Part shown: positions 15,710 through 64,000 of the stretch, one piece after another | Layout of the letters: every line of letters begins with the position of its first letter | Numbering within the stretch: the stretch's first letter is position 1 | Origin: Escherichia phage A4 | Length of the DNA: 64,000 nt | Sequence record: ON286972 | Strand: one strand, 5' to 3' | Translations under genes and position numbers: made by a program | The notes under the pieces: model-generated | Told to the model about the DNA's origin: nothing | The model's input: the letters and a program-made list of their open reading frames with translations, nothing else | Database searches by the model: none

Positions 15710-16199
<490 letters not shown>

Positions 16200-16216
16200 T
16201 AATTAAAGGTTAAACC

Positions 16217-16595
<379 letters not shown>

Positions 16596-40974: not shown

Positions 40975-41166
40975 ATGTTGATTTATCAATGTGATAACAT
41001 TCGTGTTATACAGCATCCCTACTTACAAATCTTTGATGTGCAGCAGTATATGGAAGGTGATGACCCAAGAACCTATGGTCGTAAGTATGATTACTTCACT
41101 GTAAAGCAGTGTCGTAACATCAAAGAAGTACGACAATTAGTTCAAGAACTTCAAAATAAAGGTTGA
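40975..41166 (+). CDS. hypothetical protein (63 aa)
   Basis: Track ORF 40945..41166 trimmed to ATG 40975 after GAGGA. Confidence 0.45.
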   Translation: MLIYQCDNIRVIQHPYLQIFDVQQYMEGDDPRTYGRKYDYFTVKQCRNIKEVRQLVQELQNKG

Positions 41167-41193
41167 CTTCGGTCAGCCTTTTTTGTTATAATC
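41161..41193 (+). promoter_or_regulatory. terminator/promoter cassette
   Basis: GGTTGAC-TTCG-GTCAGCC hairpin, TTTTTT, TATAAT; the TGA stop of the upstream gene is inside the hairpin. Confidence 0.6.
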
Positions 41194-45450: not shown

Positions 45451-45484
45451 AGGTTGACTTCGGTCAGCCTTTTTTGCTATAATA
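45451..45484 (+). promoter_or_regulatory. terminator/promoter cassette
   Basis: AGGTTGAC-TTCG-GTCAGCCT, TTTTT, TATAAT. Confidence 0.6.
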
Positions 45485-45800: not shown

Positions 45801-46061
45801 ATGCAAAACCCTGAATTGAAAATGTTTACACAAATCCGTCTTGCTCGTGTTGAACATGACACTAACTATGTACTGAACGATGGTCCTCCACAACGCGTTG
45901 AAGTTGGTTATATTGACGTTGATAATTCACAATCTCTTCTGATTACCATTGGTTCTAACTCTTACAGTGTTGCTACACTGGAGAGTGTATTGTCCCTGGC
46001 ACAATCCGCAAGGATTGCCCGTAACGCTCTTATGAACTGTGATGAACCTGATAATGAATGA
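45801..46061 (+). CDS. hypothetical protein (86 aa)
   Basis: ORF track; GGAG RBS. Confidence 0.5.
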   Translation: MQNPELKMFTQIRLARVEHDTNYVLNDGPPQRVEVGYIDVDNSQSLLITIGSNSYSVATLESVLSLAQSARIARNALMNCDEPDNE

Positions 46062-46392
46062 TTATATGTATGAATTAAACCTGGTATCGTTTATCGTATC
46101 AGGACTAGGATGGATGTACTATATGCTTGGGTATATTTTATTATTCTTCCGATACAATACATTCTACAAACGCTATTGGGATGATGCACCAATTCACTTC
46201 TTCGCATTTGTATTCTTAACTATGGCAGTGGGTGAAGTACTGCTAACTGGTATCCAAAGTACTGGTGGAATGATGTGCACACTAACAACATTCTTTGTTG
46301 TTTTTGGGACTGTAGTTTGGTTTTTCGCGTGGGGACTCTTCTCTTTGATTATGAAACTTGAGAAACTCCGAGACAAATTACCAGAGCGTTGA
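46039..46392 (+). CDS. integral membrane protein
   Basis: ORF track; several hydrophobic helices; start uncertain. Confidence 0.45.
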   Translation: MMNLIMNDYMYELNLVSFIVSGLGWMYYMLGYILLFFRYNTFYKRYWDDAPIHFFAFVFLTMAVGEVLLTGIQSTGGMMCTLTTFFVVFGTVVWFFAWGLFSLIMKLEKLRDKLPER

Positions 46393-46402
46393 TGAAAAGT
46401 AT

Positions 46403-46430
46403 TTGACAAACTCAACTAGTACTGTATAAT
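46403..46430 (+). promoter_or_regulatory. sigma70-type promoter
   Basis: TTGACA-N16-TATAAT with tagtactg spacer. Confidence 0.55.
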
Positions 46431-46477
46431 GTTTATCAAGGGGATGAACTTCTCATCCCTACAATCGAGGAACTACC

Positions 46478-47029
46478 ATGATTACTTTTAAGAAAACTGC
46501 CAACCACATCCATGAAATTTACATTAACGGTCACAAAGCTGGCCTTCTTCGTTTACTCGCCCATCATCCTGATGTTACCGTATCTGATAATGAACCTAAA
46601 GATTGGCGTGTATTTTTCTTTGGAAAGTACAGTGATTTTCAAGTATCAAACCTGAAGAACATTCGTTCAGTATGCACGTTAACTGAAATTAAAGAAAAGT
46701 TAACCAAAGCATTGAAAACTAATCCAGATGGTGTTCTTCCACCTGATAACTTTGTAGAGAAAGGATATGCCTTAGCTCATTTCAAAGATGGTACTATTCA
46801 ATCTATCAGTACTGAATATGAATACCAATGGACTGAGTACTTCACTTATGGCTCCCGTAATACTTTGATGGCTTCACGTAGTAAATTGGAAGAAGTACTG
46901 ACTCGTATGAATGAACGCGAGCGTCAGTACTATGAACCAGAAATGTGGAGTTCAACTTACATTGACCGTATTGACTATGTTATGATGACTCCAATCTTTG
47001 ACACTGCTTACTATGATTCTTTGAAATAA
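46478..47029 (+). CDS. hypothetical protein (183 aa)
   Basis: ORF track; GAGGAA RBS. Confidence 0.55.
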   Translation: MITFKKTANHIHEIYINGHKAGLLRLLAHHPDVTVSDNEPKDWRVFFFGKYSDFQVSNLKNIRSVCTLTEIKEKLTKALKTNPDGVLPPDNFVEKGYALAHFKDGTIQSISTEYEYQWTEYFTYGSRNTLMASRSKLEEVLTRMNERERQYYEPEMWSSTYIDRIDYVMMTPIFDTAYYDSLK

Positions 47030-47040
47030 GGATAACTTAT

Positions 47041-47217
47041 ATGAAACTACGTACTCGCAATCGACTGATGGATGCCCTATATCATGAACAGTGTTCATTA
47101 AATGAAGTAAAGCGTCAGTTAATGTACACATATCAGTTACCCGCTCGTGTTGCAAAACAACGTGCTAACGAATTGCTGAAAGAAGCAATCGAGTACTGGG
47201 AATCTGATTCGTACTAA
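47041..47217 (+). CDS. small hypothetical protein (58 aa)
   Basis: Not in track; AAGGAT RBS; clean ATG to TAA frame. Confidence 0.4.
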   Translation: MKLRTRNRLMDALYHEQCSLNEVKRQLMYTYQLPARVAKQRANELLKEAIEYWESDSY

Positions 47218-47256
47218 TATTACGTGATATGTCACGTTAATTAAGTGAGGCGATAA

Positions 47257-47508
47257 ATGAAAATATTATTAGTTCTAATACTACTAATTGTTTTACCATT
47301 TACTTTAGTATCCCCTGAACTTGCATGGAATGTGTTTGTGTACTTAGTATGTACTATTGTAGTAAATGGTATCTTGTTCTTAGTTCTATTCATAAATGGA
47401 ATAGGACACGGTGGAGGATGGACCAGTACTGCTGATATTGTACATAAAACCACTATGTCTTTATTTGTAGTGTGGAATTTATTCTGGACTTGGTTTGTGT
47501 TCTTCTAA
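47257..47508 (+). CDS. small integral membrane protein (83 aa)
   Basis: ORF track; GAGG RBS. Confidence 0.45.
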   Translation: MKILLVLILLIVLPFTLVSPELAWNVFVYLVCTIVVNGILFLVLFINGIGHGGGWTSTADIVHKTTMSLFVVWNLFWTWFVFF

Positions 47509-47517
47509 TTAAAAAAT

Positions 47518-47889
47518 ATGAATATAGATTTGAAAGGTGCAACACGAACTGTCATACTCATTGGGGAATATGCTATCAAGATTCCAACCTTCAAAAGCTG
47601 GAAGTTATTCCTAACTGGAATGATAGCTAACCTCAATGAACGCTCATGGATGCAGTACTCCAAGCGTAGTGACAGTGGGATATGTCCTACTCTGTGGTCA
47701 TCGCGAACTGGCTTAATAACAGTACAGAAACGTTGTAAGCCAGTACAACATAGGGGTTTGTTTTGGGTGGAGTTGAGTGCATTAGCATTGAATTCAGAGT
47801 TGAGTACTGACTTCTTCTATTCAGATGCGAAGCCAGAAAACTTTGGATATTTGAATGGTAAGTTAGTTAAGCTTGATTATGGAGATTAA
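47518..47889 (+). CDS. minimal protein-kinase-like protein (123 aa)
   Basis: YAIKIP (beta3 Lys), DAKPENFGY (D-x-K-P-E-N catalytic loop), KLDYGD (DFG-like); truncated after DFG. Confidence 0.45.
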   Translation: MNIDLKGATRTVILIGEYAIKIPTFKSWKLFLTGMIANLNERSWMQYSKRSDSGICPTLWSSRTGLITVQKRCKPVQHRGLFWVELSALALNSELSTDFFYSDAKPENFGYLNGKLVKLDYGD

Positions 47890-47916
47890 TATGTACGCAT
47901 TGTATAATAAAGAAAA

Positions 47917-47950
47917 GGATTGACTTCAGTCAGCCCTTTTTTCTATAATC
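47917..47950 (+). promoter_or_regulatory. terminator/promoter cassette
   Basis: GGATTGAC-TTCA-GTCAGCCC, TTTTTT, TATAAT, then conserved CATTTCATC. Confidence 0.55.
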
Positions 47951-47977
47951 ATTTCATCGAAACGAGAGGATGAATAC

Positions 47978-48415
47978 ATGACACGCATTAACTTAGTACA
48001 TGTTAAAGAACTTGCTGACCAACATCTGATGGCTGAATATCGTGAACTTCCACGTGTGTTTGGTGCTGTACAAAAACATGTTCAAGCACGTAAGCGTGTA
48101 CGTGATTTCAAAATTAACAGTACTTATCTGTTAGGTTCAGGTCATGTAACATTCTTCTACGACAAGTTACTATACTTACAGAAGCGTCATATTGATATTG
48201 TTAACGAATGTTTGCGTCGTGGTATGAAGATTCAAAACACTGAAGTAAACGACATTAGCGGCTTCCCTGCTGAGTTTTGTAATGACTACGTACCATCGGA
48301 GTCCGAGATTAAAACATCACGCGAGCGTTTGATTGAGAAGCTTCAGATGAAGCCTAAGTGGTATAAGTTTACTGATGTTGAGCTACCTATATATTATGTT
48401 GATATGATACAATGA
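47978..48415 (+). CDS. denV: pyrimidine-dimer DNA glycosylase / endonuclease V
   Basis: Near full-length similarity to T4 endonuclease V as recalled: [30 protein letters not shown]...KRVRDFKI......[11 protein letters not shown]. Confidence 0.9.
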
Positions 48416-48639
48416 ATGATGAAGAATTCAAAAAATATGCGATTGCGAAGCTTGATTCATACAAGTCACGCGAAACGTATAAATTTAATCCTGATAAAAC
48501 AAAAGCATCTATAAGATGGATGATTAATTCACCCAAATATACATTTGACGAAAAATATTCATGGATAGTGCAATGTAGTGATTATGAGGATTTGGTATAT
48601 AATATTAAACTGTGTTGGTATGAATACAACAATAAATGA
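48412..48639 (+). CDS. hypothetical protein (75 aa)
   Basis: ORF track; ATGA overlap. Confidence 0.45.
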
Positions 48640-48645
48640 TATAAG

Positions 48646-48679
48646 GGGTTGACTTCGGTCAGCCCTTTTTGCTATAATC
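48646..48679 (+). promoter_or_regulatory. terminator/promoter cassette
   Basis: GGGTTGAC-TTCG-GTCAGCCC, TTTTT, TATAAT, CATTTCATC. Confidence 0.6.
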
Positions 48680-48704
48680 ATTTCATCAAATTAAGAGGTG
48701 ATAC

Positions 48705-48944
48705 ATGAAACTATCTTTTATACGTTTAGCAGAATTCTTCGGTACTGATATAATTACTTTACAACAAATTGCAGACAATACTTCATTAAGTACACAAGAA
48801 GTACTTGACTTAGATGTGATAGAGTGTGATAATACTTCTATCGATTATAAAGAAGGTCTTGTCGAAAAAGATAAGATTCAGGCTAAGATTAATGGTGCTG
48901 GACGGGTTCAGTACTGGAAAGGAGTTTTAAGTCATGCCAGCTAA
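48705..48944 (+). CDS. hypothetical protein (79 aa)
   Basis: ORF track; AGAGGTGA RBS. Confidence 0.45.
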   Translation: MKLSFIRLAEFFGTDIITLQQIADNTSLSTQEVLDLDVIECDNTSIDYKEGLVEKDKIQAKINGAGRVQYWKGVLSHAS

Positions 48945-50631
48945 ATTAACCCCTAAACAAGCAAAAGAAAAATTCAACAAAAAAGTATTAGAACATAACG
49001 TTCCAATTGAAGCTGATTATAGTAAGTATGAAAATGCCAAATTAAAAAACATCCAAGTAGTTTGCAATGATGTATTAAAACACAAATCAGGCATATCACA
49101 AATATATCTTATGGATCACGCAAACCTCACACACCCATCCAAAAAATTTGGTTGTCCTGAATGTGAAGACTGGTATAATGGTCATGCTAAAAGTTTAGAT
49201 ATTTTAATTGTTAGGGAAAGAATTAATTCTTGGATTAGTACTTATGGCGGGATTATTGATACGGTTAGTGGTGAAGTTGAAGTTTATAAAAATAATTCAT
49301 CCAAAATACCATATATTTGTAAAAATGGAACTAAAAAAACGCTTACTATTTCTTCACTTGGCGATGAAATCGGTTGTAATTGTTCTAAATGTAAAGCTGA
49401 ATTAATATCAGAAATCGAAGATAACAATGAATATACATCCATGACTACTGTTGATGATTGTGTTACAATTTCCCATTTTAAATTTGGGGATGATGTTGCA
49501 TTCTCGTGGATTTCACCATTGGAAATGAAAAAACATGGTTACTGTCTTGCCGAAAAAATGAAAGAAAAAGCATTGTCGGTTGGTAAAAATATTATTGGAT
49601 ATGCAATATCATCTCTTAGTGAATGGAAAAATGAAAAAACTCCTGTAATAACCGAACACGAAGGAGTATTATATCGTATTTCCAAAGCATCATATTTGAT
49701 CAATAATAATATAGTACATAGACCACATTATACAAAAAATAATTTTTTATATTATTTTTACAAATGTTCACCTAACAATCAACTTATTACACCAATCCTA
49801 ATACCTGATGATATTGGTACAAAAAAGAAAATTAAAGTATGTTATAAATCATGTGGGTGTGAATATGATATATCTGTGGACGTTATAATGAACAGAAATT
49901 TAAAAACTTGTGGAAACTGTAAAAATATAGATACTAATAAATTTATAGAACAGTGCTTGGAGTTCACTTCAAGTGGAGATTATATCTATGATAGAGTAAA
50001 CTATATAAATCAAAGTACACCTGTAACTATAGTTCATAAAATTTACGGCGAATTCAAAAGTACACCACAAAATCACTTAATACATTTAAAAAACGGTTTG
50101 AAATATGATACAGCTAACTTTAAAATAAAAAATTTAACTCAATTTAAAATTAAAGCAAATGAAGTTCATAATAACTTATATAATTATGATAAAGTTGATT
50201 ATGTAAATTCTTCAACGAAAGTATTAATAACTCATCCAGTATATGGAGACTTTTGGCAAACTCCAGCAAGTCACCTTGGTGGGTGTGGTCATCCACTTGC
50301 GGCTGGTCATTCTCAGCAATATGCATATATTCATAATATTTTGGATGGTGTTTTATCTGTAGCATTGAAATATGGGATTGAAAAGCAGAAAGGTAAGAGG
50401 GTGATGCAGCAAAATAAAAAATCCATGTTTCAAGTTCAATCTCTGTATACTTATTTTTTTCCATCTGTATACGAATGTAAGCAAGCTGAAAAAGAATGTA
50501 AGAAACTATTTGGTAAAGGTGTTTTAACTAAACAAGAAATGCCAGACGGGTATACTGAAACAACTACACCAAACAACATAGATAAAATTATTGCCATCTA
50601 TGAAAAATGGGGTGGGGTGAAACAAAACTAA
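48934..50631 (+). CDS. Cys-rich protein with three internal repeats (565 aa)
   Basis: ORF track; CPECEDW, CNCSKC, CGCEYD, CGNCKN pairs; repeat Y.YD.V.Y.N.ST.V.I.H..YG.F..TP..HL three times. Confidence 0.6.
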   Translation: MPAKLTPKQAKEKFNKKVLEHNVPIEADYSKYENAKLKNIQVVCNDVLKHKSGISQIYLMDHANLTHPSKKFGCPECEDWYNGHAKSLDILIVRERINSWISTYGGIIDTVSGEVEVYKNNSSKIPYICKNGTKKTLTISSLGDEIGCNCSKCKAELISEIEDNNEYTSMTTVDDCVTISHFKFGDDVAFSWISPLEMKKHGYCLAEKMKEKALSVGKNIIGYAISSLSEWKNEKTPVITEHEGVLYRISKASYLINNNIVHRPHYTKNNFLYYFYKCSPNNQLITPILIPDDIGTKKKIKVCYKSCGCEYDISVDVIMNRNLKTCGNCKNIDTNKFIEQCLEFTSSGDYIYDRVNYINQSTPVTIVHKIYGEFKSTPQNHLIHLKNGLKYDTANFKIKNLTQFKIKANEVHNNLYNYDKVDYVNSSTKVLITHPVYGDFWQTPASHLGGCGHPLAAGHSQQYAYIHNILDGVLSVALKYGIEKQKGKRVMQQNKKSMFQVQSLYTYFFPSVYECKQAEKECKKLFGKGVLTKQEMPDGYTETTTPNNIDKIIAIYEKWGGVKQN

Positions 50632-50637
50632 ACAAAA

Positions 50638-50671
50638 GGGTTGACTTCGGTCAGCCCTTTTTGCTATAATT
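50638..50671 (+). promoter_or_regulatory. terminator/promoter cassette
   Basis: GGGTTGAC-TTCG-GTCAGCCC, TTTTT, TATAAT, TATTTCATC. Confidence 0.6.
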
Positions 50672-54715: not shown

Positions 54716-54745
54716 AAAAAAGCCCACATTAAGTGGGCTTTTTGT
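54716..54745. terminator. bidirectional intrinsic terminator between convergent gene blocks
   Basis: AGCCCAC-ATTAA-GTGGGCT hairpin flanked by AAAAA and TTTTGTT. Confidence 0.6.
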
Positions 54746-56769
54746 TATTTGTGTTTTATGTGTAAAGTGTCTAATATTGTATTGAACAATGATTTAGCAG
54801 AAATCATGATTACTTGATCAAAATCTTTAGTATAAGAAATATTAGCAGTACTGGAAGAATCTTTCACCTCATCCGGTAATGCATCAAACTCTTCTTTTTC
54901 CATAATCTTTTCAAGTTCTTCACGAGAAATGGCTTTTACGTTTTCAATAGTCCTTAGTTGTATATTATAATCTTTATAATACGAAACTAAGTTCGTTGCG
55001 TATGAACCATCTTTAGATGCTGTTCCAGTAAAATCATAACATCCTGTATCAGTACTAACCCAATCGATTTTCCCTGAACTACCACTATATACACCTTTGT
55101 TGAACTTAATGTTAACAACATCACCAATAGTTTTCAATATACCACCTTTACATTCATTAAATGCGTTTAATTGATAACTTGTAGTCATATAGAATTTCGG
55201 TTCTAATGTAACAGTATCACCTACAGTTGCTTTCATATCAGAAACACTTAAGAACAATTCATTAAATCCTTTTGAATAAGTCTTGGTAATTGTTGTTCCA
55301 TCCCTGTTAGTTACTGTGTATTCTAAGTCCAATTCACAAATACTATTCAATGATAAGTAAGGGATATCAAATTTATCAGTACTAGCATCATAAGGACATC
55401 TTGAGGATGGTAGTATACCAGTAGGGTTTGGTACGTATTGAACTTTTGTTAACTCATACCCGCTTGCATTCGCTGGTGTAACTGTAATAGACGGTGTAGA
55501 TATTCCTTTCATTCCACAGAAGTATATGTTATCTGGAAAATCATTTATTACGAAGTCAGTGACAGGAATATCATAAGTATCTTTATCAGTCCAATTAAGA
55601 ACAACATTAGAACTGGTTGGATCAACAATATGTTCACTAGAACCACAGAAATATACTGATTTGGTATTAGTAATCATTAGTAATGTTTTGGATGATGAGT
55701 TCAATTCAAGAACATCTTTCACTTCAAGACCAGATGGTAATGTCAATGGTAACTTCGTAAATGATGTTAAATCTTGTTCATCTTTAACACCACTAGTCCC
55801 CGCCGGAAACTTACCTGAACCATAGAAAACACCTTTATTCGTCATGAAATACATGAACGGGGTTGATGTTCCTTTGTCAAATAGTTGAATGTCATCACAT
55901 GTTAAACCATCAGGTAAATCCACTTTAGATGGAGTTCTATAAACACCAGGCTTAATACCACCTTCACCATTACTTACATCACCTAGTACATATAAATCTT
56001 TACCTAGTTTCAAGAACATTGATTTATTTTTAGCACACAAGAATGTATCATATGATTTATCATCAATTGGTAGCTTGGTATATTCGGTGTATGTAGGCAT
56101 TGAATCATCAATCCACGAACTATCACCACTAATGTAAATGTGATTGTTTCTGTCAATATAATATGAATACACATCAGTACTGTTCATATATAAAGCATTT
56201 AGTGCATTTGTTTTCACTAAGTGATTGAACTTAAGAACTTGTTTTCCATCGTACTTATGGGAGTTGACACCAATATCACCATTTAGGCTACTACCAATTG
56301 AATATATATGACCACGTGGTAATAGAACTTGAACACCACTTTTGGTTAAATTATATTTGGAGTGCAAGAGATCGTTATATACAACTCTAACTTTCTTAAA
56401 GATATCAGTACATTCAATCCACGATTTAGATGGTGTACCATCCATTCCTATTATTGCCGGATCACCATAATAATAAGCTTTATTTTCATATGATATTTTA
56501 AAAGATGATTTACCATCTTTTGTATTAGCACTGAAGTACACATCTTTACTATCTTTAATTGGATAAGTACTATTCTCTACAAAAGTATTATATGAGATAT
56601 CGTTGTTAGCACTATTAAGAACAAAAGAAGTAGATGTACTATTGGACTTATAGACTGCTACGGAAGATGTATCACTGAAATCAATTTTAGTGAACGTATC
56701 TTTGTATGTTTCGTTTAATAATCCTACATAAAAAACATCAGTGCCATCCATCAGTAACGAATATAGCAT
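54745..56769 (-). CDS. RCC1-like repeat protein, possibly the C-terminal part of a frameshifted gene continuing from 56738..57682
   Basis: ORF track; no RBS before its ATG; frame opens 29 nt upstream of the stop of the preceding minus-strand ORF. Confidence 0.55.
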   Translation of the reverse strand: MLYSLLMDGTDVFYVGLLNETYKDTFTKIDFSDTSSVAVYKSNSTSTSFVLNSANNDISYNTFVENSTYPIKDSKDVYFSANTKDGKSSFKISYENKAYYYGDPAIIGMDGTPSKSWIECTDIFKKVRVVYNDLLHSKYNLTKSGVQVLLPRGHIYSIGSSLNGDIGVNSHKYDGKQVLKFNHLVKTNALNALYMNSTDVYSYYIDRNNHIYISGDSSWIDDSMPTYTEYTKLPIDDKSYDTFLCAKNKSMFLKLGKDLYVLGDVSNGEGGIKPGVYRTPSKVDLPDGLTCDDIQLFDKGTSTPFMYFMTNKGVFYGSGKFPAGTSGVKDEQDLTSFTKLPLTLPSGLEVKDVLELNSSSKTLLMITNTKSVYFCGSSEHIVDPTSSNVVLNWTDKDTYDIPVTDFVINDFPDNIYFCGMKGISTPSITVTPANASGYELTKVQYVPNPTGILPSSRCPYDASTDKFDIPYLSLNSICELDLEYTVTNRDGTTITKTYSKGFNELFLSVSDMKATVGDTVTLEPKFYMTTSYQLNAFNECKGGILKTIGDVVNIKFNKGVYSGSSGKIDWVSTDTGCYDFTGTASKDGSYATNLVSYYKDYNIQLRTIENVKAISREELEKIMEKEEFDALPDEVKDSSSTANISYTKDFDQVIMISAKSLFNTILDTLHIKHK

Positions 56770-57682
56770 TTCTATTATTACATAAAGAAGTAATATTTTT
56801 TACTACTTTATTTGAATTATAGTTTGGTAACTTCTTTAATCCACGAACAAAATTATCACAAATAATACCAGTACCATAGAAGTTATAATCTTTATCACAG
56901 TATATAAATGCTGTATCATATGGTGAAGTACTTAAATTCTTATAGAATGGGAATGGAGTGAATGTGAATTGTAGAACCTTACGCAATTCCCCTACTGTCT
57001 CTGTTGGGAATTGTCTGTTTTTATTATTACCAATAAAAACAACTCTATCTGTTAGGAATGTGTACATAATTCCATATGGTTTTACGTACAAATCATTATA
57101 TCCCAATGATAATTTAGTTGGTGATGTTAGTGGTCCTGAGTTTATTTTGGTTTGATTAATTGAAAACTCATTAGAATTATAACCAGCCCCATATGTATTA
57201 CCATTAGTACTTAAATAATATACAGTAGCTTCCCCTGCTCCAAGAAAAGTCTTTACATCAGTTGCTAACGTTTTTTGGAAAGTTGGATAAAATTTATTAT
57301 ATGTTCCCGTTCCCATCATCAGTTCACCATTGCGGTTATGACCACGAGCATATAGAATACCTTTGTCTGTATCTAAGAAGAACATACCATTATATGTTTT
57401 GTAAATCTTACCTTTTGTAATATCGAAATTGGAAAAATCATCACTAATATCAATGAATATTGTCTCAAGATTATCTTCAAGGGAGTTTAGAGATTTACCA
57501 CAATACCATACTGAGTTATCTTTTTTAACAGCAACACAACCACACGGACTGGCATCAAAATATGTTACATCGGAAAGAACCAGAGATAAGTTCTTTGTAC
57601 TGCAATAGTTATCCATTGCATATAAATCGGAATCTTTAAGTATATATACGGAATTCCCAACCGCTTTAATCGAATTTATCAT
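56738..57682 (-). CDS. RCC1-like repeat protein (N-terminal part or separate gene)
   Basis: Track ORF 56738..57772 trimmed to ATG 57682 (MINSIK...) after GAGGA RBS; G.N..GELMMGTG-type repeats. Confidence 0.55.
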   Translation of the reverse strand: MINSIKAVGNSVYILKDSDLYAMDNYCSTKNLSLVLSDVTYFDASPCGCVAVKKDNSVWYCGKSLNSLEDNLETIFIDISDDFSNFDITKGKIYKTYNGMFFLDTDKGILYARGHNRNGELMMGTGTYNKFYPTFQKTLATDVKTFLGAGEATVYYLSTNGNTYGAGYNSNEFSINQTKINSGPLTSPTKLSLGYNDLYVKPYGIMYTFLTDRVVFIGNNKNRQFPTETVGELRKVLQFTFTPFPFYKNLSTSPYDTAFIYCDKDYNFYGTGIICDNFVRGLKKLPNYNSNKVVKNITSLCNNRNAIFVTDGWH

Positions 57683-57901
57683 GTTTATATCCTCATAAAT
57701 TGATACCAATTCTAATGTATTTACCCACTTAAAGTACAAAAAATGATCAATTAAATGGGGAATCTTTAACAAATGAATTCATGATGTACTTGATGAATTG
57801 CCCATACCAACGGATTCCTCAGTCCCAGCATACCACATGGTATTATCGAACTTTTTATCATTGTAGTATCATAACCACACCAAACATCATCAACATTAGT
57901 A

Positions 57902-59254
57902 TTACAACAATTGTATTTCTGTGAGTGTTTGATATGTTGTACCGTTGTACACACCTCTCCAATATACCCTACCTTCAGTACTAACCACTAATAATCCATA
58001 TGTTGTAAACCCAAGAGTACCACCAACATACATAGCATCTTTAATTCGAATACCAATGTCTTCATATGTAAATGAAGCGACTGCTCCCGCTTGCCACGAA
58101 GGACTAGCGTAGTAATCACTATAAACACCATGTGCTTTATATATTGATGTTGTTCCTGGTTCAAAAATTACAGTTCCACAGTAGTTCATTCGTATTTTAG
58201 TACTGGATGAAGTCGGTACATTTATACCTATGCCATCTTTTATCCCTGTAGTTAGGACGTTAAAACCACCCGCCACACGGTTGACGTCATTCTCACCGAT
58301 TAAAAACATACCAACGTTGTAGCCCATATAATATACACTGCTACTGCCATTCCAGAAAGAAAAACCACCACCATTACCACAGCGATATAGTTGTGAATTT
58401 GAGCAGTACATCATACCTTCGTTTGTCGCATCAAATTCATCTGCTGTTCCTATTGTAGCTACAGTAGTCCACGTTTTAATCACTTGGTTTGTACTAGCTG
58501 GTGTTTGTATACCATATCGTATATTATATCCCTTACCAACGATTGTACCATCTTCTAATTTAGCATAAAGTACAGGTCTATTACCAACAAAATACATATT
58601 ATTGTGTGACATGTCTATTGTGCATCTTAATGAAACTACTTTTTGTGTCAATTGATTATCTTTAGTAAAAGAAGTAAAGTAGTAATCCGATGTTGAGTTG
58701 TTTATTAAACCTTGTATTGACAATCCCATATACCAGATTTCACCATTGCTGTTTAATGCTGCCAAAATACAACTATATTTTGAAGTGTATGCTGGTGATG
58801 TTGTTGAAGTTGCTGGTCCTTTATCATATCCACCACAGAATACCATCTCCACAACTTCACCTACGTTCGAAAAATAAGAAGATACATTGATAAAACCATT
58901 TGTTATAAAAGGTGCTGTATTCATACTTGAATGTGTGAATATCCCATTTGCATATACACCACAAAAATGATATGAACCATCATTATCTTGGACTATTATT
59001 CCATTTGATAGTAACCAAAAATTGTTTACATTTTTTCTTACTAATTCAACTCCTGCACCATTGGTTGGTGTTATACCAAAAGAAACATATTTTGTTTGAC
59101 CAATACCATATAAATTTCCATTAGTTGCTAGTATTGCACCAAACCAGTTCCCACCACCATTCCTATCATGACCCATACCAATGGAGTCAAATTTCTTCAC
59201 AGTAGGGACTTCAACTTTATTCCCATACTCTAGCATTCTAACAAAAGGTAACAT
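57902..59254 (-). CDS. RCC1-like beta-propeller repeat protein (putative receptor-binding or tail-fibre-like), paralog E
   Basis: Track ORF 57902..59320 trimmed to ATG 59254 (MLPFVRMLEYGN) after AGGAGG; track N-extension reads through the terminator hairpin. Confidence 0.65.
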   Translation of the reverse strand: MLPFVRMLEYGNKVEVPTVKKFDSIGMGHDRNGGGNWFGAILATNGNLYGIGQTKYVSFGITPTNGAGVELVRKNVNNFWLLSNGIIVQDNDGSYHFCGVYANGIFTHSSMNTAPFITNGFINVSSYFSNVGEVVEMVFCGGYDKGPATSTTSPAYTSKYSCILAALNSNGEIWYMGLSIQGLINNSTSDYYFTSFTKDNQLTQKVVSLRCTIDMSHNNMYFVGNRPVLYAKLEDGTIVGKGYNIRYGIQTPASTNQVIKTWTTVATIGTADEFDATNEGMMYCSNSQLYRCGNGGGFSFWNGSSSVYYMGYNVGMFLIGENDVNRVAGGFNVLTTGIKDGIGINVPTSSSTKIRMNYCGTVIFEPGTTSIYKAHGVYSDYYASPSWQAGAVASFTYEDIGIRIKDAMYVGGTLGFTTYGLLVVSTEGRVYWRGVYNGTTYQTLTEIQLL

Positions 59255-59318
59255 ATATCCTCCTTTATTCATTATATTATATTTAATCAAAAAAGAAAAG
59301 CCAGTACAGAGTACTGGC
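59255..59318 (-). promoter_or_regulatory. repeated intergenic cassette: terminator hairpin, TATAAT box, AGGAGG RBS
   Basis: Minus-strand read: GCCAGTACTCTGTACTGGC, T-tract, GATTAAATATAATATAATGAATAAAGGAGG, ATG; near-identical at four sites. Confidence 0.5.
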
Positions 59319-59329
59319 ATTTAAAATAA

Positions 59330-60505
59330 TCAAAATGTAGGAAGTTTGAATTCTCTCATAACAGATGAACTGCTTGCAGATACATTATCTGGTGATTTCC
59401 CTGCGTAGTATAATTTATTATCAATGAACATATACAATGTTGCATCATTTCCTGCTACAAGTGATTCACTTTTCTTAAATTTAACACCACTAGGTAAAAT
59501 TGCTTCAACAAATGAACCTGATTCTCTTGTAGTATTATTTGCCAATTGACCATTGTTATTATAACCAGTACTATAAATTTTACCTGAACTATAATATACG
59601 AGTCCACGAGTACTAGTGTTTTCTATTCGAATGAATTCACTATCATCTGGGACTGTAGTTGATAGAACTGGGTTTAACTTATAAGCAGATGATACATTAT
59701 TATTACCCAATTGACCATAACCTTGAAAGCCTAGTGTATACATAGGACATGATTCTGGTGTGCCTTTTGTTATAATACCAATATAATTCACACTACAAAA
59801 AATGTCTATTGCTTCTGTAATAGGTGTACCCTTATATTGAACCCAAGGGAATACATACGATTGTTGCTTACCATTTCCCAAAGTACCGGAAGTTGTTGTC
59901 CCAGTACGCCACATTGTATCATCAAGTTTAATAATCCAGTTAGCTGTCGTTATCGATGAACAGAATTTTTTAACATTATCCACTAAAAATGTAAATTGAT
60001 TATAATATGATGCAGTGTTTATACCAAACTTAGCACCAGTATTATCACCTAACAAATATAAACTATTATCTGTACCTAAAATCAAAGCATAATCATAACC
60101 CACGTATATATCTTTAATTCTTGAAATTCCAAATTGTGTAAAATAGCTTGTACATTCTGTGAATGTTGTTATATTATTGGTTGTATTATTACCTAGCCAT
60201 TTATCTAAACCACTATAAAAGAATCTATCATCATTTGTGCGTATTAGACAAAAAGCGTTCATTGTACTGCACCAAAAATCTTTAACATTGCTATATATTT
60301 TTGTCCATTCAGTTACTGCATTAGTATGACCTAAACCAAAAATTCCACCATTCTGAAGACCAATAGCCCATATTGAACCATTTTTATCAAGCATCATTGT
60401 ACATGTATGTGAATAACCACCCGATGGTGTAACTAATTTAACAAAATTGGGAATATATGGTAAAACTTTATTTCCATAATCCAACATTCTAACAAAAGGT
60501 AACAT
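59330..60505 (-). CDS. RCC1-like beta-propeller repeat protein, paralog D
   Basis: Trimmed to ATG 60505 (MLPFVRMLDYGN); repeats such as GIFGLGHTNAVTEW, GYGQLGNNNVSSAY. Confidence 0.65.
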   Translation of the reverse strand: MLPFVRMLDYGNKVLPYIPNFVKLVTPSGGYSHTCTMMLDKNGSIWAIGLQNGGIFGLGHTNAVTEWTKIYSNVKDFWCSTMNAFCLIRTNDDRFFYSGLDKWLGNNTTNNITTFTECTSYFTQFGISRIKDIYVGYDYALILGTDNSLYLLGDNTGAKFGINTASYYNQFTFLVDNVKKFCSSITTANWIIKLDDTMWRTGTTTSGTLGNGKQQSYVFPWVQYKGTPITEAIDIFCSVNYIGIITKGTPESCPMYTLGFQGYGQLGNNNVSSAYKLNPVLSTTVPDDSEFIRIENTSTRGLVYYSSGKIYSTGYNNNGQLANNTTRESGSFVEAILPSGVKFKKSESLVAGNDATLYMFIDNKLYYAGKSPDNVSASSSSVMREFKLPTF

Positions 60506-60569
60506 AATTCCTCCTTTATTCATTATACTATATTTAATCAAAAAAGAAATGCCAGCATCAAGTACTGGC
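60506..60569 (-). promoter_or_regulatory. repeated intergenic cassette (terminator, TATAAT, RBS)
   Basis: Hairpin GCCAGTACTTGATGCTGGC, T-tract, TATAGTATAATGAATAAAGGAGG. Confidence 0.5.
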
Positions 60570-60576
60570 ATTATTG

Positions 60577-61767
60577 TTATAGTTGTCTTGGTGTATCAAG
60601 TACATATCTATTTGTACTAGGACCACCATCATCATACGTTCCGGTTGAATATATATTTTTCATATCAGCAGTTAGAAAAGTACGATACGAACCGCGATAT
60701 ATTTTTATTTTATCATACATAGAATATGATATTTCTGCTGGCATTGGACATATAGTAAATCTACCAATAGTAACATTAGAACCAACACCCAACGAACCAG
60801 CATAACTACTCGCATTTAAACCAGTTGCATATACACCAGTACTCGTAACTAGTATACTAGATTGTGTTGGGTATCCTGTATGAATTGAATACAAAGTTCC
60901 AGTTGGTAATGTCGTACTATTGCTCCCTAATACAGCAAGTGCCGAACTGGTTGTGGTATTGTTACCCCATGCACCATTACTCGCTAAACCACCAACTAGA
61001 AACTGACGTGCACCAGTACTTGGATTCTCAACCAAAGCACTGACTGCACCACTTGAGCATCCAGTGTATTGTAACGTTTTTGTGTATGTTGTACTTGGTT
61101 TATATAAAGTATATTCATTAAATGGTGTCCATGTGGTACTGGTACTTATACCTGACGTACCACCACCAATATATAAATTATTTTGTGTATCAAAAAACAT
61201 TACACAGTTATTTGTTGACTGTATTTGTGCAATATCAACATTAGGCGTGACAGCTTTTACAAATGATCCATCTGTTATTTGTTGAGTACTACCAGTACCA
61301 TCAGCGAATTGTCTAGCCCCACTCCAACCAGTACTCCATATTGTATTATTATCCATTAATACCGTAAACCACGTAGTACCTCCATACATCTGTTTAATTG
61401 AAGTACTTGAACTTTGCGTGTACAAATTTTCAATATATTGGTTATAACTTAAAAACGTAGTAGTACTAGTTGGTAAACCAATATGATCACCATATCCACA
61501 ATAAAAATAATTTGAGTCATTATCTTGTACTAACAAAGTTCCTTGTGACACCCAGAAATCTTTAACATTTTCTCTAATTAAGGTCCATGACTTTACTGCA
61601 TTACTATTTCCTATACCAAACTTCCCAAAACTATTATTTCCACGTGCGTATAGTTGACCATCCGTATAAAGAACGACAACATCTAAATCAGTTGGTGTTA
61701 TTTTCTTAATTTGAATAGGGACTGGTGTTATATTCCCATAATCAAACATTCTAACAAAAGGTAACAT
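60577..61767 (-). CDS. RCC1-like beta-propeller repeat protein, paralog C
   Basis: ORF track; starts MLPFVRMFDYGN; GKFGIGNSNAVKSW repeats. Confidence 0.65.
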   Translation of the reverse strand: MLPFVRMFDYGNITPVPIQIKKITPTDLDVVVLYTDGQLYARGNNSFGKFGIGNSNAVKSWTLIRENVKDFWVSQGTLLVQDNDSNYFYCGYGDHIGLPTSTTTFLSYNQYIENLYTQSSSTSIKQMYGGTTWFTVLMDNNTIWSTGWSGARQFADGTGSTQQITDGSFVKAVTPNVDIAQIQSTNNCVMFFDTQNNLYIGGGTSGISTSTTWTPFNEYTLYKPSTTYTKTLQYTGCSSGAVSALVENPSTGARQFLVGGLASNGAWGNNTTTSSALAVLGSNSTTLPTGTLYSIHTGYPTQSSILVTSTGVYATGLNASSYAGSLGVGSNVTIGRFTICPMPAEISYSMYDKIKIYRGSYRTFLTADMKNIYSTGTYDDGGPSTNRYVLDTPRQL

Positions 61768-61832
61768 ATTTCCCTCCTTTATTCATTATACTATATTTAA
61801 TCAAAAAAGAAAAGCCAGTATCAAGTACTGGC
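61768..61832 (-). promoter_or_regulatory. repeated intergenic cassette (terminator, TATAAT, RBS)
   Basis: Hairpin GCCAGTACTTGATACTGGC, T-tract, TATAGTATAATGAATAAAGGAGGG. Confidence 0.5.
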
Positions 61833-61838
61833 CTATAT

Positions 61839-63008
61839 TTAAACTGGTGAATCTAATACAAATTCTAAACTACTAATGCCACCATATGTGACATTTGTCC
61901 CTGTGCTATATACAAAATTACCATCAGTTATATAAGTTCGGTTATACCCACCTGCCATCTGCGACTTACTATAATCAAACCCATCAGGAACGATTGCTTT
62001 GGTATATACTAATGCATTATTAGATGTACCAATACCTAACATACCAGCTCCTGAAGATTTATTGTAGCCGCAACAATATATACCATCTGTTGTAGCAATA
62101 ACTTGGTTATAATATGAAGTAATGTTAGCAATGCTTACTACATCACCGGGTGGCATTAGTGAAGCAGTTTGAACCTCAAATGCTCTATAATCACTGAGAG
62201 AACCATTTATCCCATCTGCTTGTGCACCAAATATTCTCGAACCGCCATTTGCGATGATGGTTTTACCAGTGGGATCAGTACCAATTGCCATTGCCATTGA
62301 AGTACTATTCTCCATATAGTACTTGATATTAATTGTATTTCTTAAGCTGGTAGGAGCACCATAATATATAGTATATAACTTACCTCCTGAACTTGTAACT
62401 GCATTTACTCTTCCTGTATAAAATAGCCATCCTTGGTTTGTAACATAACCGTGCATTAAATTACTTGCAAACAATTTAACAGGTAATTGATCTGCTGCGG
62501 TCGGAACAGTACTTTTGACGAATTTTCTAGCAACATTGTTAGTTGTTGTCCCATCACCCAACTGACCATCACCCCCTGCTCCAGTACTCCATATTGTTTG
62601 GTCTGTTAGTAATACACTTGTAGTCTGATAACTAACTGCTATATCTAATATTGGTAATGTTAACGTATCGAATGTTGGCATAGCAGAAGTCCATATTGAT
62701 ACTGCTGCCCCTGGCATACCAACAGTTGTTGAACTTCCACTGTACCATATTTCATCATTGCTTTTCTTAATAACTATCGACGTGGCTCCCATCCAAAAAT
62801 CTTGAACATCAGAAGTGCTAAAAGTCCATGTAGTAACAATATTTTTGTGACCTAAACCCAAAAGACCATTTGTATTCTCACCACGCACATATAAATCACC
62901 ACTGTTTGTTAAAACAGCAACATTATAGTTGTTAGCTAGTATTTTTTTAATATTTGGTTTAGCAGGTGCAATATTCCCATACTCTAACATTCTTACAAAA
63001 GGTAACAT
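61839..63008 (-). CDS. RCC1-like beta-propeller repeat protein, paralog B
   Basis: Track ORF 61839..63170 trimmed to ATG 63008 (MLPFVRMLEYGN); GLLGLGHKNIVTTW, GQLGDGTTTNN repeats. Confidence 0.65.
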   Translation of the reverse strand: MLPFVRMLEYGNIAPAKPNIKKILANNYNVAVLTNSGDLYVRGENTNGLLGLGHKNIVTTWTFSTSDVQDFWMGATSIVIKKSNDEIWYSGSSTTVGMPGAAVSIWTSAMPTFDTLTLPILDIAVSYQTTSVLLTDQTIWSTGAGGDGQLGDGTTTNNVARKFVKSTVPTAADQLPVKLFASNLMHGYVTNQGWLFYTGRVNAVTSSGGKLYTIYYGAPTSLRNTINIKYYMENSTSMAMAIGTDPTGKTIIANGGSRIFGAQADGINGSLSDYRAFEVQTASLMPPGDVVSIANITSYYNQVIATTDGIYCCGYNKSSGAGMLGIGTSNNALVYTKAIVPDGFDYSKSQMAGGYNRTYITDGNFVYSTGTNVTYGGISSLEFVLDSPV

Positions 63009-63072
63009 AATTCCTCCTTTATTCATTATATTATATTTAATCCAAATAAGAAAGCCAGTATCAAGTACTGGC
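63009..63072 (-). promoter_or_regulatory. repeated intergenic cassette (terminator, TATAAT, RBS)
   Basis: Hairpin GCCAGTACTTGATACTGGC, T-tract, TATAATATAATGAATAAAGGAGG. Confidence 0.5.
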
Positions 63073-63078
63073 ATTGTG

Positions 63079-64000
63079 TTATTTCGGTAAATCAATTTTA
63101 GTAAAGACTGCAACATCCTCGCTTGCACCGGGAATGGCGTAATACGTTCCAGTACTATATACATCTCCATTTTTGGTTAATATTGAAGTCAAACCATCAC
63201 TAAAAAGAACATCCCTAATCTCACTAACTTCAACGGGTAATTGTAAATTTGTAGCACTATATATAGCACCAGTTTGAGAATTGTTTAATCCCAAACCACG
63301 GTTCGCCCCAACACCCTTCTGATATGTACTGGTAATTACCATTTGTGTAGCAGTATTTAATGCAGGTGAATTCGTCATAAACAACGGAGAACTATTAGGC
63401 AAAGTACTTACAGGAACTGCACGGAATGTAGTCGTACCTGAACTAAGAAAGTTTGGAGTTTGACCACATACGAAATATGATGTACCATTATAGTAATTAA
63501 ATGCATTACCACCAATCGCTGCATCGATTACACCAGAACTACGTAATCCCCAAGTGTTAATTTGTGTTTGGTCCCCTGTACCATGCTGCCCACTGCTATT
63601 CCATCCAGAACTATATAGCTTATTATCTAATGTAATATACATACTATCATTTGCATTAGTCATTACTTTACGCACGTTAGTAGCACATTGAGTTAATGTG
63701 TAAATCGATGATGAGCCAATACCTAAAGAACCACGATATCCATTATCTCCTGCACCATAGAGTACTGAACTAGTGCTAAGTACAAATATTAAACCATTTG
63801 TACATACAATATTAGCAATTTCACTCACTGGTATAGCATTGGTAAACCAATTAGTCCTTTCAACTAATATAGTACTGTAAGAAGTAGTTGTAGAAGATGA
63901 GAACCAGTACGTTTCACCCGATGTCCATATCGTATTATCATTTTTAATAATAACAAGTGTACGACCACCCACGAAAAAATTAGAAACATCTGAACTTACT
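63079..64000 (-). CDS. RCC1-like repeat protein, paralog A, 5'-truncated by window edge
   Basis: Frame stays open upstream of the track start (GTG 63972) to the window end; GYRGSLGIGSSS, GQHGTGDQTQINTW repeats. Confidence 0.55.
   Translation of the reverse strand, partial: VSSDVSNFFVGGRTLVIIKNDNTIWTSGETYWFSSSTTTSYSTILVERTNWFTNAIPVSEIANIVCTNGLIFVLSTSSVLYGAGDNGYRGSLGIGSSSIYTLTQCATNVRKVMTNANDSMYITLDNKLYSSGWNSSGQHGTGDQTQINTWGLRSSGVIDAAIGGNAFNYYNGTSYFVCGQTPNFLSSGTTTFRAVPVSTLPNSSPLFMTNSPALNTATQMVITSTYQKGVGANRGLGLNNSQTGAIYSATNLQLPVEVSEIRDVLFSDGLTSILTKNGDVYSTGTYYAIPGASEDVAVFTKIDLPK

Follow-up and report, generated by a model that had tools for sequence, protein, structure and literature searches.

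A 123-residue kinase-fold protein of Escherichia phage A4 belongs to PHROG 4301, a widespread and uncharacterised phage family

Description

We report on a small gene, here called the mini-kinase gene, in a 64,000-nucleotide stretch of Escherichia phage A4 (sequence record ON286972; the whole stretch is referred to as the window), and on PHROG 4301, the uncharacterised and widespread phage family to which its product belongs and in which the kinase fold is pared to about 120 residues. The gene (47518..47889, + strand) was taken from an open reading frame (ORF) list; it runs from an ATG start to a TAA stop, encodes a protein of 123 residues and 14 kDa with an isoelectric point (pI) of 9.3 (family median, 9.1), and has no paralogue within the 64-kb window. 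A sequence-only reading of this DNA had picked out the motifs YAIKIP, DAKPEN and KLDYGD, in that order, in a 123-residue protein that has neither activation segment nor C-lobe; the ORF list and the sequence bear out both statements, with the stop codon standing right behind KLDYGD.

The motifs were mapped onto the protein and onto its predicted model, all on the + strand. A glycine-loop equivalent, G7-A-T-R10-T-V12 (47536..47553), forms the β1-β2 turn between model strands 2-4 and 10-15, and YAIKIP (residues 18-23; 47569..47586) coincides with model strand 18-23, which corresponds to β3 and carries Lys21, the equivalent of the VAIK lysine. Glu41 (47638..47640), the αC glutamate equivalent, lies within model helix 28-43 at a distance of 20 residues from Lys21; in PKA, K72 and E91 are 19 residues apart. 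The catalytic loop, D103-A-K105-P-E-N108 (residues 103-108; 47824..47841), was located by hhalign to PKA and by hmmsearch to TTK and MAP3K8, and is a Ser/Thr-type loop of the form D-x-K-x-x-N. D120-Y-G (47875..47883) is the DFG equivalent, aligned to PKA D184, and is followed by D123 and the stop, so that KLDYGD (residues 118-123) forms the last six residues and the protein ends three residues after Asp120. There is no activation segment ending in APE, no αD and no αF-αI, and the helical C-lobe core past DFG (αF onward) that characterises protein-kinase-like (PKL) enzymes is absent.

Structure prediction with AlphaFold2, using a 144-sequence family alignment, gave a model with a mean predicted local distance difference test score (pLDDT) of 94.8 and a predicted template modelling score (pTM) of 0.85. 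The model consists of five β-strands and a long helix (N-lobe and αC), a 14-residue αE-like helix, a short helix and a β-hairpin ending in DYG, and thus includes the five-stranded β-sheet and αC helix of a PKL N-lobe. In this predicted model K21 and E41, the β3 Lys-αC Glu pair, occupy the expected secondary-structure elements, and both a catalytic loop of the form D-x-x-x-x-N and the metal-binding DFG aspartate are present (D103, N108 and D120). A Foldseek search of the PDB returned 1864 matches, and all 50 of those listed are protein-kinase-fold enzymes, with probabilities of 0.96-1.0; in a viral structure library, the best matches were PHROG 4301 members and other viral kinases. On the strength of the model, the PKL-fold assignment is secure for the N-lobe and the catalytic residues. 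The sequence-only reading had proposed profile searches and structure prediction as checks: the Pkinase, RIO and Kdo profiles gave nothing, and AlphaFold2 and Foldseek gave a kinase fold, which we accept because structure prediction is decisive where the profiles fall short.

A suggested kinship with RIO or Kdo kinases was not supported: neither the RIO (PF01163) nor the Kdo-WaaP (PF06293) profile matched the mini-kinase. Nor was any kinase family found when Pfam was searched with the second family subtype (described below) and with the longer family members, and a search of PDB sequences with the mini-kinase sequence alone returned no matches. Because it has no helical C-lobe and no activation segment and fails the Pkinase, RIO and Kdo profiles, the mini-kinase is left outside the named kinase families.

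The protein matches phrog_4301 ("unknown function") over residues 2-122 with E=3.4e-43. When 1.8 billion cluster representatives (50% identity clusters) were scanned with phmmer, at least 862 clusters fell into PHROG 4301 at E≤1e-3, and 226 at E≤1e-10; in almost all of the best 150 of the 862 clusters the protein is 110-135 residues long, and the matches reach the final residues. A profile search of a 5.8-billion-protein collection added further members of about 107-230 residues, nearly all of 110-150, and these matches contained no Pfam domain and gave no link to any kinase family of full length. In the 144-member alignment, from which all conservation counts here are taken, 125 proteins stop no more than five residues past the DFG aspartate, and 92 stop exactly at D-Y-G-x; most members end 2-5 residues beyond this aspartate. 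About 120 residues is the native architecture of the family, neither a truncation nor an annotation fragment. The sequence-only reading was therefore right about the end point of the protein, directly after a DFG-like motif, but what it called a truncation is a family trait.

Purifying selection acts on the reading frame: the ratio of nonsynonymous to synonymous substitution rates (dN/dS) is 0.085 against phage 121Q and 0.155 against EJP2. This low ratio, together with the same length across hundreds of clusters, means that the gene is neither a pseudogene nor a fragment.

Active-site positions are conserved throughout the alignment. K21 and E41 are invariant (144/144), D120 is kept in 143 members and K105 in 127 (88%), and G7, R10, V12, P23, F31, G34, N38, G65, G110 and D120 are each conserved in at least 94%. 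The motifs match conserved columns of a large family and so are no chance pattern. The third glycine of GxGxxG is replaced in the family by an invariant arginine, and the second subtype likewise has GxGxxRxV. Positions 103 and 108 covary, with D…N (as in the mini-kinase) in about 78 and E…S in about 57 of the 144 members, which we read as a compensatory pair at what would be a working active site. A pseudokinase, the second possibility that had been raised, is defined by loss of the VAIK lysine, the HRD aspartate or the DFG aspartate; K21, D103 and D120 are all present, and the protein is not a pseudokinase by this sequence definition.

By megablast and tblastn the window falls into the Asteriusvirus group (the jumbo coliphages 121Q, PBECO4, slurp01 and phAPEC6, of about 350 kb), with a DNA identity of 94-95%. 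The mini-kinase ORF shares 93-97% identity with its counterparts in about 35 of these genomes, and 67% with the one in EJP2. Homologues of 30-55% identity occur in T4-like Dhakaviruses, in rV5-like and Felix-O1-like phages and in jumbo phages of Aeromonas, Erwinia, Klebsiella, Ralstonia, Pseudomonas and Shewanella, as well as on one E. coli plasmid and in Methylococcus and Aquimarina genomes. In Shewanella phage SXP01 (PV593634.1), a 51%-identical homologue (16068-16448) carries the annotation "putative virion structural protein"; that genome matches at two places. Temperate phages also carry PHROG 4301, since a 44%-identical homologue occurs in Salmonella lambdoid prophages (loci L041-L043; gene at 6001-6372 of L041 and L042). 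There it is a single insert in a moron slot, with the Rz lysis gene on one side and the terminase gene Nu1 on the other, and with HicAB and a DNA methyltransferase nearby; no convincing moron-type promoter or terminator flanks this copy.

Longer members (OBP_197, Kc263, RP12 and P0160) are rare and bear C-terminal tails that are mutually unrelated and match nothing in Pfam. A second, distant subtype of 142-173 residues matches phrog_4301 with E=1e-31 to 6e-57. Its copies (loci L026-L040, for example L028 2526-2954, about 142 residues) carry GxGxxRxV, VVKVE, DLKPENFG and DYA; the stretch from β5 to the catalytic loop, at only about 20 residues, leaves no room for a helix of αE length, and there is a conserved K-x-x-W tail at the end and, in some copies, an N-terminal extension of about 100 residues.

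No study of PHROG 4301 was found in the literature, in which subscription journals were incompletely covered, so that a description may exist; the genome papers on related phages that were checked do not mention the protein. A few GenBank records name their copies Ser/Thr or STE-family kinases, and the Ralstonia phage RP12 homologue is called "Protein kinase domain-containing protein" in UniProt.

Genome context

A consensus σ70 promoter (TTGACA-16-TATAAT, 46403..46430, + strand, 12/12 match) heads a unit of four closely spaced + strand ORFs (46478-47029, 47041-47217, 47257-47508 and 47518-47889), of which the mini-kinase gene is the last; the spacing and shared strand suggest that the four are co-transcribed. 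Because this promoter heads the unit, host RNA polymerase is likely to transcribe the mini-kinase gene early. It is one of 17 perfect TTGAC[AT]-N16-18-TATAAT sites in the window (16553-50670), all on the + strand, where 0.41 would be expected. The ORF at 47257-47508, which ends 9 nt ahead of the mini-kinase start, encodes a strongly hydrophobic membrane protein of 83 residues that has no PHROG match and is kept in 121Q, but does not stand beside the homologues of other lineages. No obvious Shine-Dalgarno sequence precedes the mini-kinase start, for which reason translational coupling to the 83-residue ORF is possible.

After the mini-kinase stop come 88 bp of intergenic DNA that hold only a hairpin/promoter cassette, and then denV (pyrimidine-dimer glycosylase; 47978-48415; phrog_1183, E=4e-59). 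The cassette (47917..47949, + strand) is a hairpin with a T-run that overlaps the -35 box of the denV promoter (score 11/12); it is conserved in 121Q, closes the mini-kinase unit and opens the denV unit, and is repeated at 48646 and 50638 where none would be expected by chance. Several σ70 promoters of the window bear such a GGGTTGAC-TTCG-GTCAGCCC hairpin and T-run across the -35 box (for example at 41163-41192, 45454-45483, 47917-47949, 48646-48678 and 50638-50670, all + strand). Judged by its sequence, the arrangement of hairpin, T-run and promoter is a putative combined terminator and promoter between gene modules, and it recalls the "promoter-early stem-loops" of T4-type phages.

Compared with 121Q (locus L007, 4356-4643), the window lacks, at 47889-47917, about 250 bp bearing a 95-residue ORF; the deletion is flanked by AATAAAGAAAAG repeats and a 9-codon stub (ATGTACGCATTG…TGA) is left. 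In a survey of neighbouring genes, ORFs within 4 kb were clustered at 41 loci from 24 lineages, the window included, and the two nearest neighbours on each side were assigned to PHROGs in the same 24 lineages; by neither approach did any neighbour recur in more than two lineages. The Felixounavirus copy is alone on its strand, opposite to its neighbours, and the JS10 copy adjoins RNA ligase 2. An unrelated GC-rich phage lineage, whose mini-kinases are only about 30% identical to that of the window, also has denV downstream of its PHROG 4301 gene (L028 2888-3436, L030 4264-4830 and L032 4500-4994); denV follows immediately in the window, L028 and L030, and a 60-residue ORF intervenes in L032. 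In other lineages RNA ligase 2, an RtcB-type ligase, or a DNA ligase and a polymerase are found close to the gene. This proximity could be chance, or could reflect a tie to nucleic-acid repair.

Elsewhere in the window, a 565-residue HNH/homing-type endonuclease (48934-50631; phrog_681/559) is present in only some close relatives, and most Asteriusvirus genomes align across only 51-57% of 46000-50000. Seven tandem ORFs of 297-674 residues fill 54745-63972 on the - strand; five are mutual paralogues detectable by BLAST, and all five that were scanned match PHROG 4219, an RCC1-repeat ("regulator of chromosome condensation") family.

Discussion

The reading that we favour, with a probability of roughly 60%, is that the mini-kinase is a stand-alone, catalytically competent minimal PKL enzyme, possibly dimeric, that probably phosphorylates host proteins. 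What it retains, namely an N-lobe (β1-β5 with αC), a single αE-like helix, a catalytic loop and the magnesium-binding aspartate of DFG, would bind ATP-Mg via Lys21-Glu41 and Asp120/Asn108 and would transfer the γ-phosphate using Asp103 and Lys105. Produced immediately after infection, the enzyme would phosphorylate host proteins for takeover or counter-defence in the manner of T7 gp0.7, and formation of a homodimer, or the binding of a partner, would cover the face of αE that normally lies under αF. The D-x-K-x-x-N loop is of the Ser/Thr-protein-kinase type, which makes proteins the most probable substrates. When two copies joined by a 25-residue Gly-Ser linker were modelled as a tandem fusion with a concatenated alignment, the pTM was 0.78; each half scored about 90 in pLDDT, and the linker was disordered. 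By our own estimate, a pTM of roughly 0.45 at most would be expected had the two halves been placed independently. The value of 0.78 hints at a homodimer, with the reservation that linker fusions can over-predict packing.

Several observations weigh against this interpretation. The first concerns sequence profiles, which give no significant support for kinase homology: Pkinase (PF00069) matched neither the mini-kinase (Pfam at E up to 10) nor the 144 members (E up to 1), NCBIfam gave no match, and the PADLOC anti-phage defence profiles gave none at E up to 1. Searched against PDB sequences with hmmsearch, the family profile found TTK and MAP3K8 as its best kinases at E of about 1, in alignments that fall on their catalytic loops and DFG motifs, and the second-subtype profile found nothing relevant; hhalign of the family profile to PKA (whose sequence was checked against the PDB) was local, covering 31 columns at E=0.11, and paired D103, K105, N108 and D120 with PKA D166, K168, N171 and D184. 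The second concerns architecture. In kinases, αF anchors both hydrophobic spines and the catalytic loop, and to our knowledge every characterised PKL enzyme, including OspG, HopBF1, Bud32, RIO and ArkI, keeps helices after DFG, αF itself being retained even in Bud32, RIO, OspG and HopBF1; we know of no precedent for catalysis in their absence. In addition, about 40% of members have Glu and Ser in place of the catalytic-loop Asp and Asn, which is unusual among active kinases, and both the active-site geometry and the proposed dimer interface are putative. Finally, the late or moron positions in lambdoid prophages mean that early host takeover cannot be a universal role of the family.

Comparison with known systems places the family beyond other reduced kinases. 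PF00069 kinases such as PKA, TTK and PknB share the core order of Gly-loop Val, β3 Lys, αC Glu, D-x-K-P-E-N and D-[FY]-G, and are among the best structural matches in Foldseek, whereas the mini-kinase falls below the Pfam threshold, has no αD, activation segment, APE or αF-αI, and carries Arg for the third loop Gly. In its presumed mode of action the mini-kinase most resembles a Ser/Thr kinase core. OspG/NleH and HopBF1 (PDB 4q5h, 6pwd), which are secreted into eukaryotic cells and need host partners (E2~Ub and HSP90), have about 60-70 residues of helices after DFG compared with 1-3 in PHROG 4301, and the family profile detected no similarity to them among PDB sequences. The small atypical kinases RIO, Bud32 (PRPK) and ArkI likewise differ in keeping 60 or more residues after DFG. 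The family ends at DFG+1 to +3 with all catalytic residues kept, and goes structurally beyond the kinases so far called minimal. Baculovirus PK2 is also a viral partial kinase, but of the opposite half and from eukaryotic hosts: a truncated eIF2α-kinase homologue in which the C-lobe is kept and the N-lobe is largely missing, and whose role is inhibitory, not enzymatic. For function, the precedent is that of T7 gp0.7 and JSS1_004, early phage kinases whose promiscuous phosphorylation of host proteins disables defence systems (PMC12345140; bioRxiv 10.1101/2024.12.20.629319). These are proteins of about 360 residues with a C-terminal shut-off/nucleic-acid-binding domain, found largely in Autographiviridae (PMC12345140). 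Like the mini-kinase they are phage-encoded and, as suggested for its gene, expressed early through host RNA polymerase; they belong to a different PHROG (2828), and hhalign of the PHROG 4301 profile to T7 gp0.7 showed no similarity (10 columns, E=0.52).

A bolder version of the preferred reading, which we put forward tentatively and regard as somewhat doubtful, is that PHROG 4301 comprises the smallest self-sufficient kinase-fold enzymes known, with a core of about 120 residues and no αF or C-lobe. A dimer or docking to the target would then supply both scaffold and substrate site, and the protein would be a portable, promiscuous module for phosphorylation, or for another kind of nucleotide transfer, used by many phage lineages against host proteins or defence.

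The alternative that fares best, though unlikely in our view, is an active phosphotransferase with a non-protein substrate, such as a nucleic-acid end, a nucleotide or second messenger, an envelope sugar or an antibiotic-like small molecule, or else an enzyme of non-canonical, AMPylation-type chemistry. Analogues would be ArkI, a PKL-fold RNA kinase, for polynucleotide or tRNA ends, and APH and the Kdo/WbdD kinases for small molecules. The mini-kinase has no peptide-binding element, the protein and its family are basic, and the neighbours include repair enzymes (denV directly downstream in two unrelated lineages, ligases near other copies), all of which would fit such a substrate; the Ser/Thr type of the catalytic loop points to proteins.

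Rather improbable is a non-catalytic ATP-binding module or decoy, that is, a pseudokinase-like scaffold that binds and blocks or re-targets a host protein, or a protein that sequesters nucleotide. Baculovirus PK2, which inhibits the eIF2α kinases of its host, would be a parallel to the scaffold. Kinase structural knowledge lends it some weight, as the spines are unanchored without αF and the C-lobe and catalysis may be impossible; the protein is also small, stand-alone and encoded in accessory-gene positions, as with many phage inhibitors, and the unrelated C-terminal tails of some members could be binding modules. Against a decoy, Lys21, Asp103 and Asp120 are all kept, with conservation extending over hundreds of clusters, and the compensatory change from D/N to E/S would be difficult to account for if no reaction took place there.

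A split kinase, with the mini-kinase as its N-terminal half and a C-lobe that comes from a separate gene nearby or elsewhere, was another suggestion of the sequence-only reading and is in our view very unlikely. The protein does stop exactly where the C-lobe proper would be expected to start, and 121Q does have its additional ORF between the mini-kinase gene and denV. However, the check for a downstream C-lobe found none, as no other frame is open in the 88 bp before denV, which comes next in the window with no ORF between; the 121Q ORF is missing from phage A4 and clusters with no neighbour from other lineages; the gene is solitary in Felixounavirus and a single insert in lambdoid prophages; and the tails of the longer members are mutually unrelated and outside Pfam. 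The absence of any neighbour gene that recurs across the 24 lineages is our reason for not regarding the protein as part of a split kinase, an idea that is largely refuted where adjacent genes are concerned. That the gene is a relic in decay, or a wrongly called piece, of a full-length kinase gene might be suggested by its half-kinase length and by the phAPEC6 GenBank record, which calls no coding sequence over the homologous stretch (L046 818-1482, the 83-residue membrane ORF and the mini-kinase). This reading was rejected on the conservation data, given the low dN/dS, the constant length in divergent clusters that number in the hundreds and span many phage groups, and the compact, confidently predicted fold.

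If inactive, PHROG 4301 would still be an unusual viral half-kinase with a partner worth finding. If active, it would mark the real lower limit of a catalytic kinase-fold unit and, at 14 kDa, would be an attractive scaffold for engineering, and it would give phage biology a second widespread kinase family beside T7 gp0.7.
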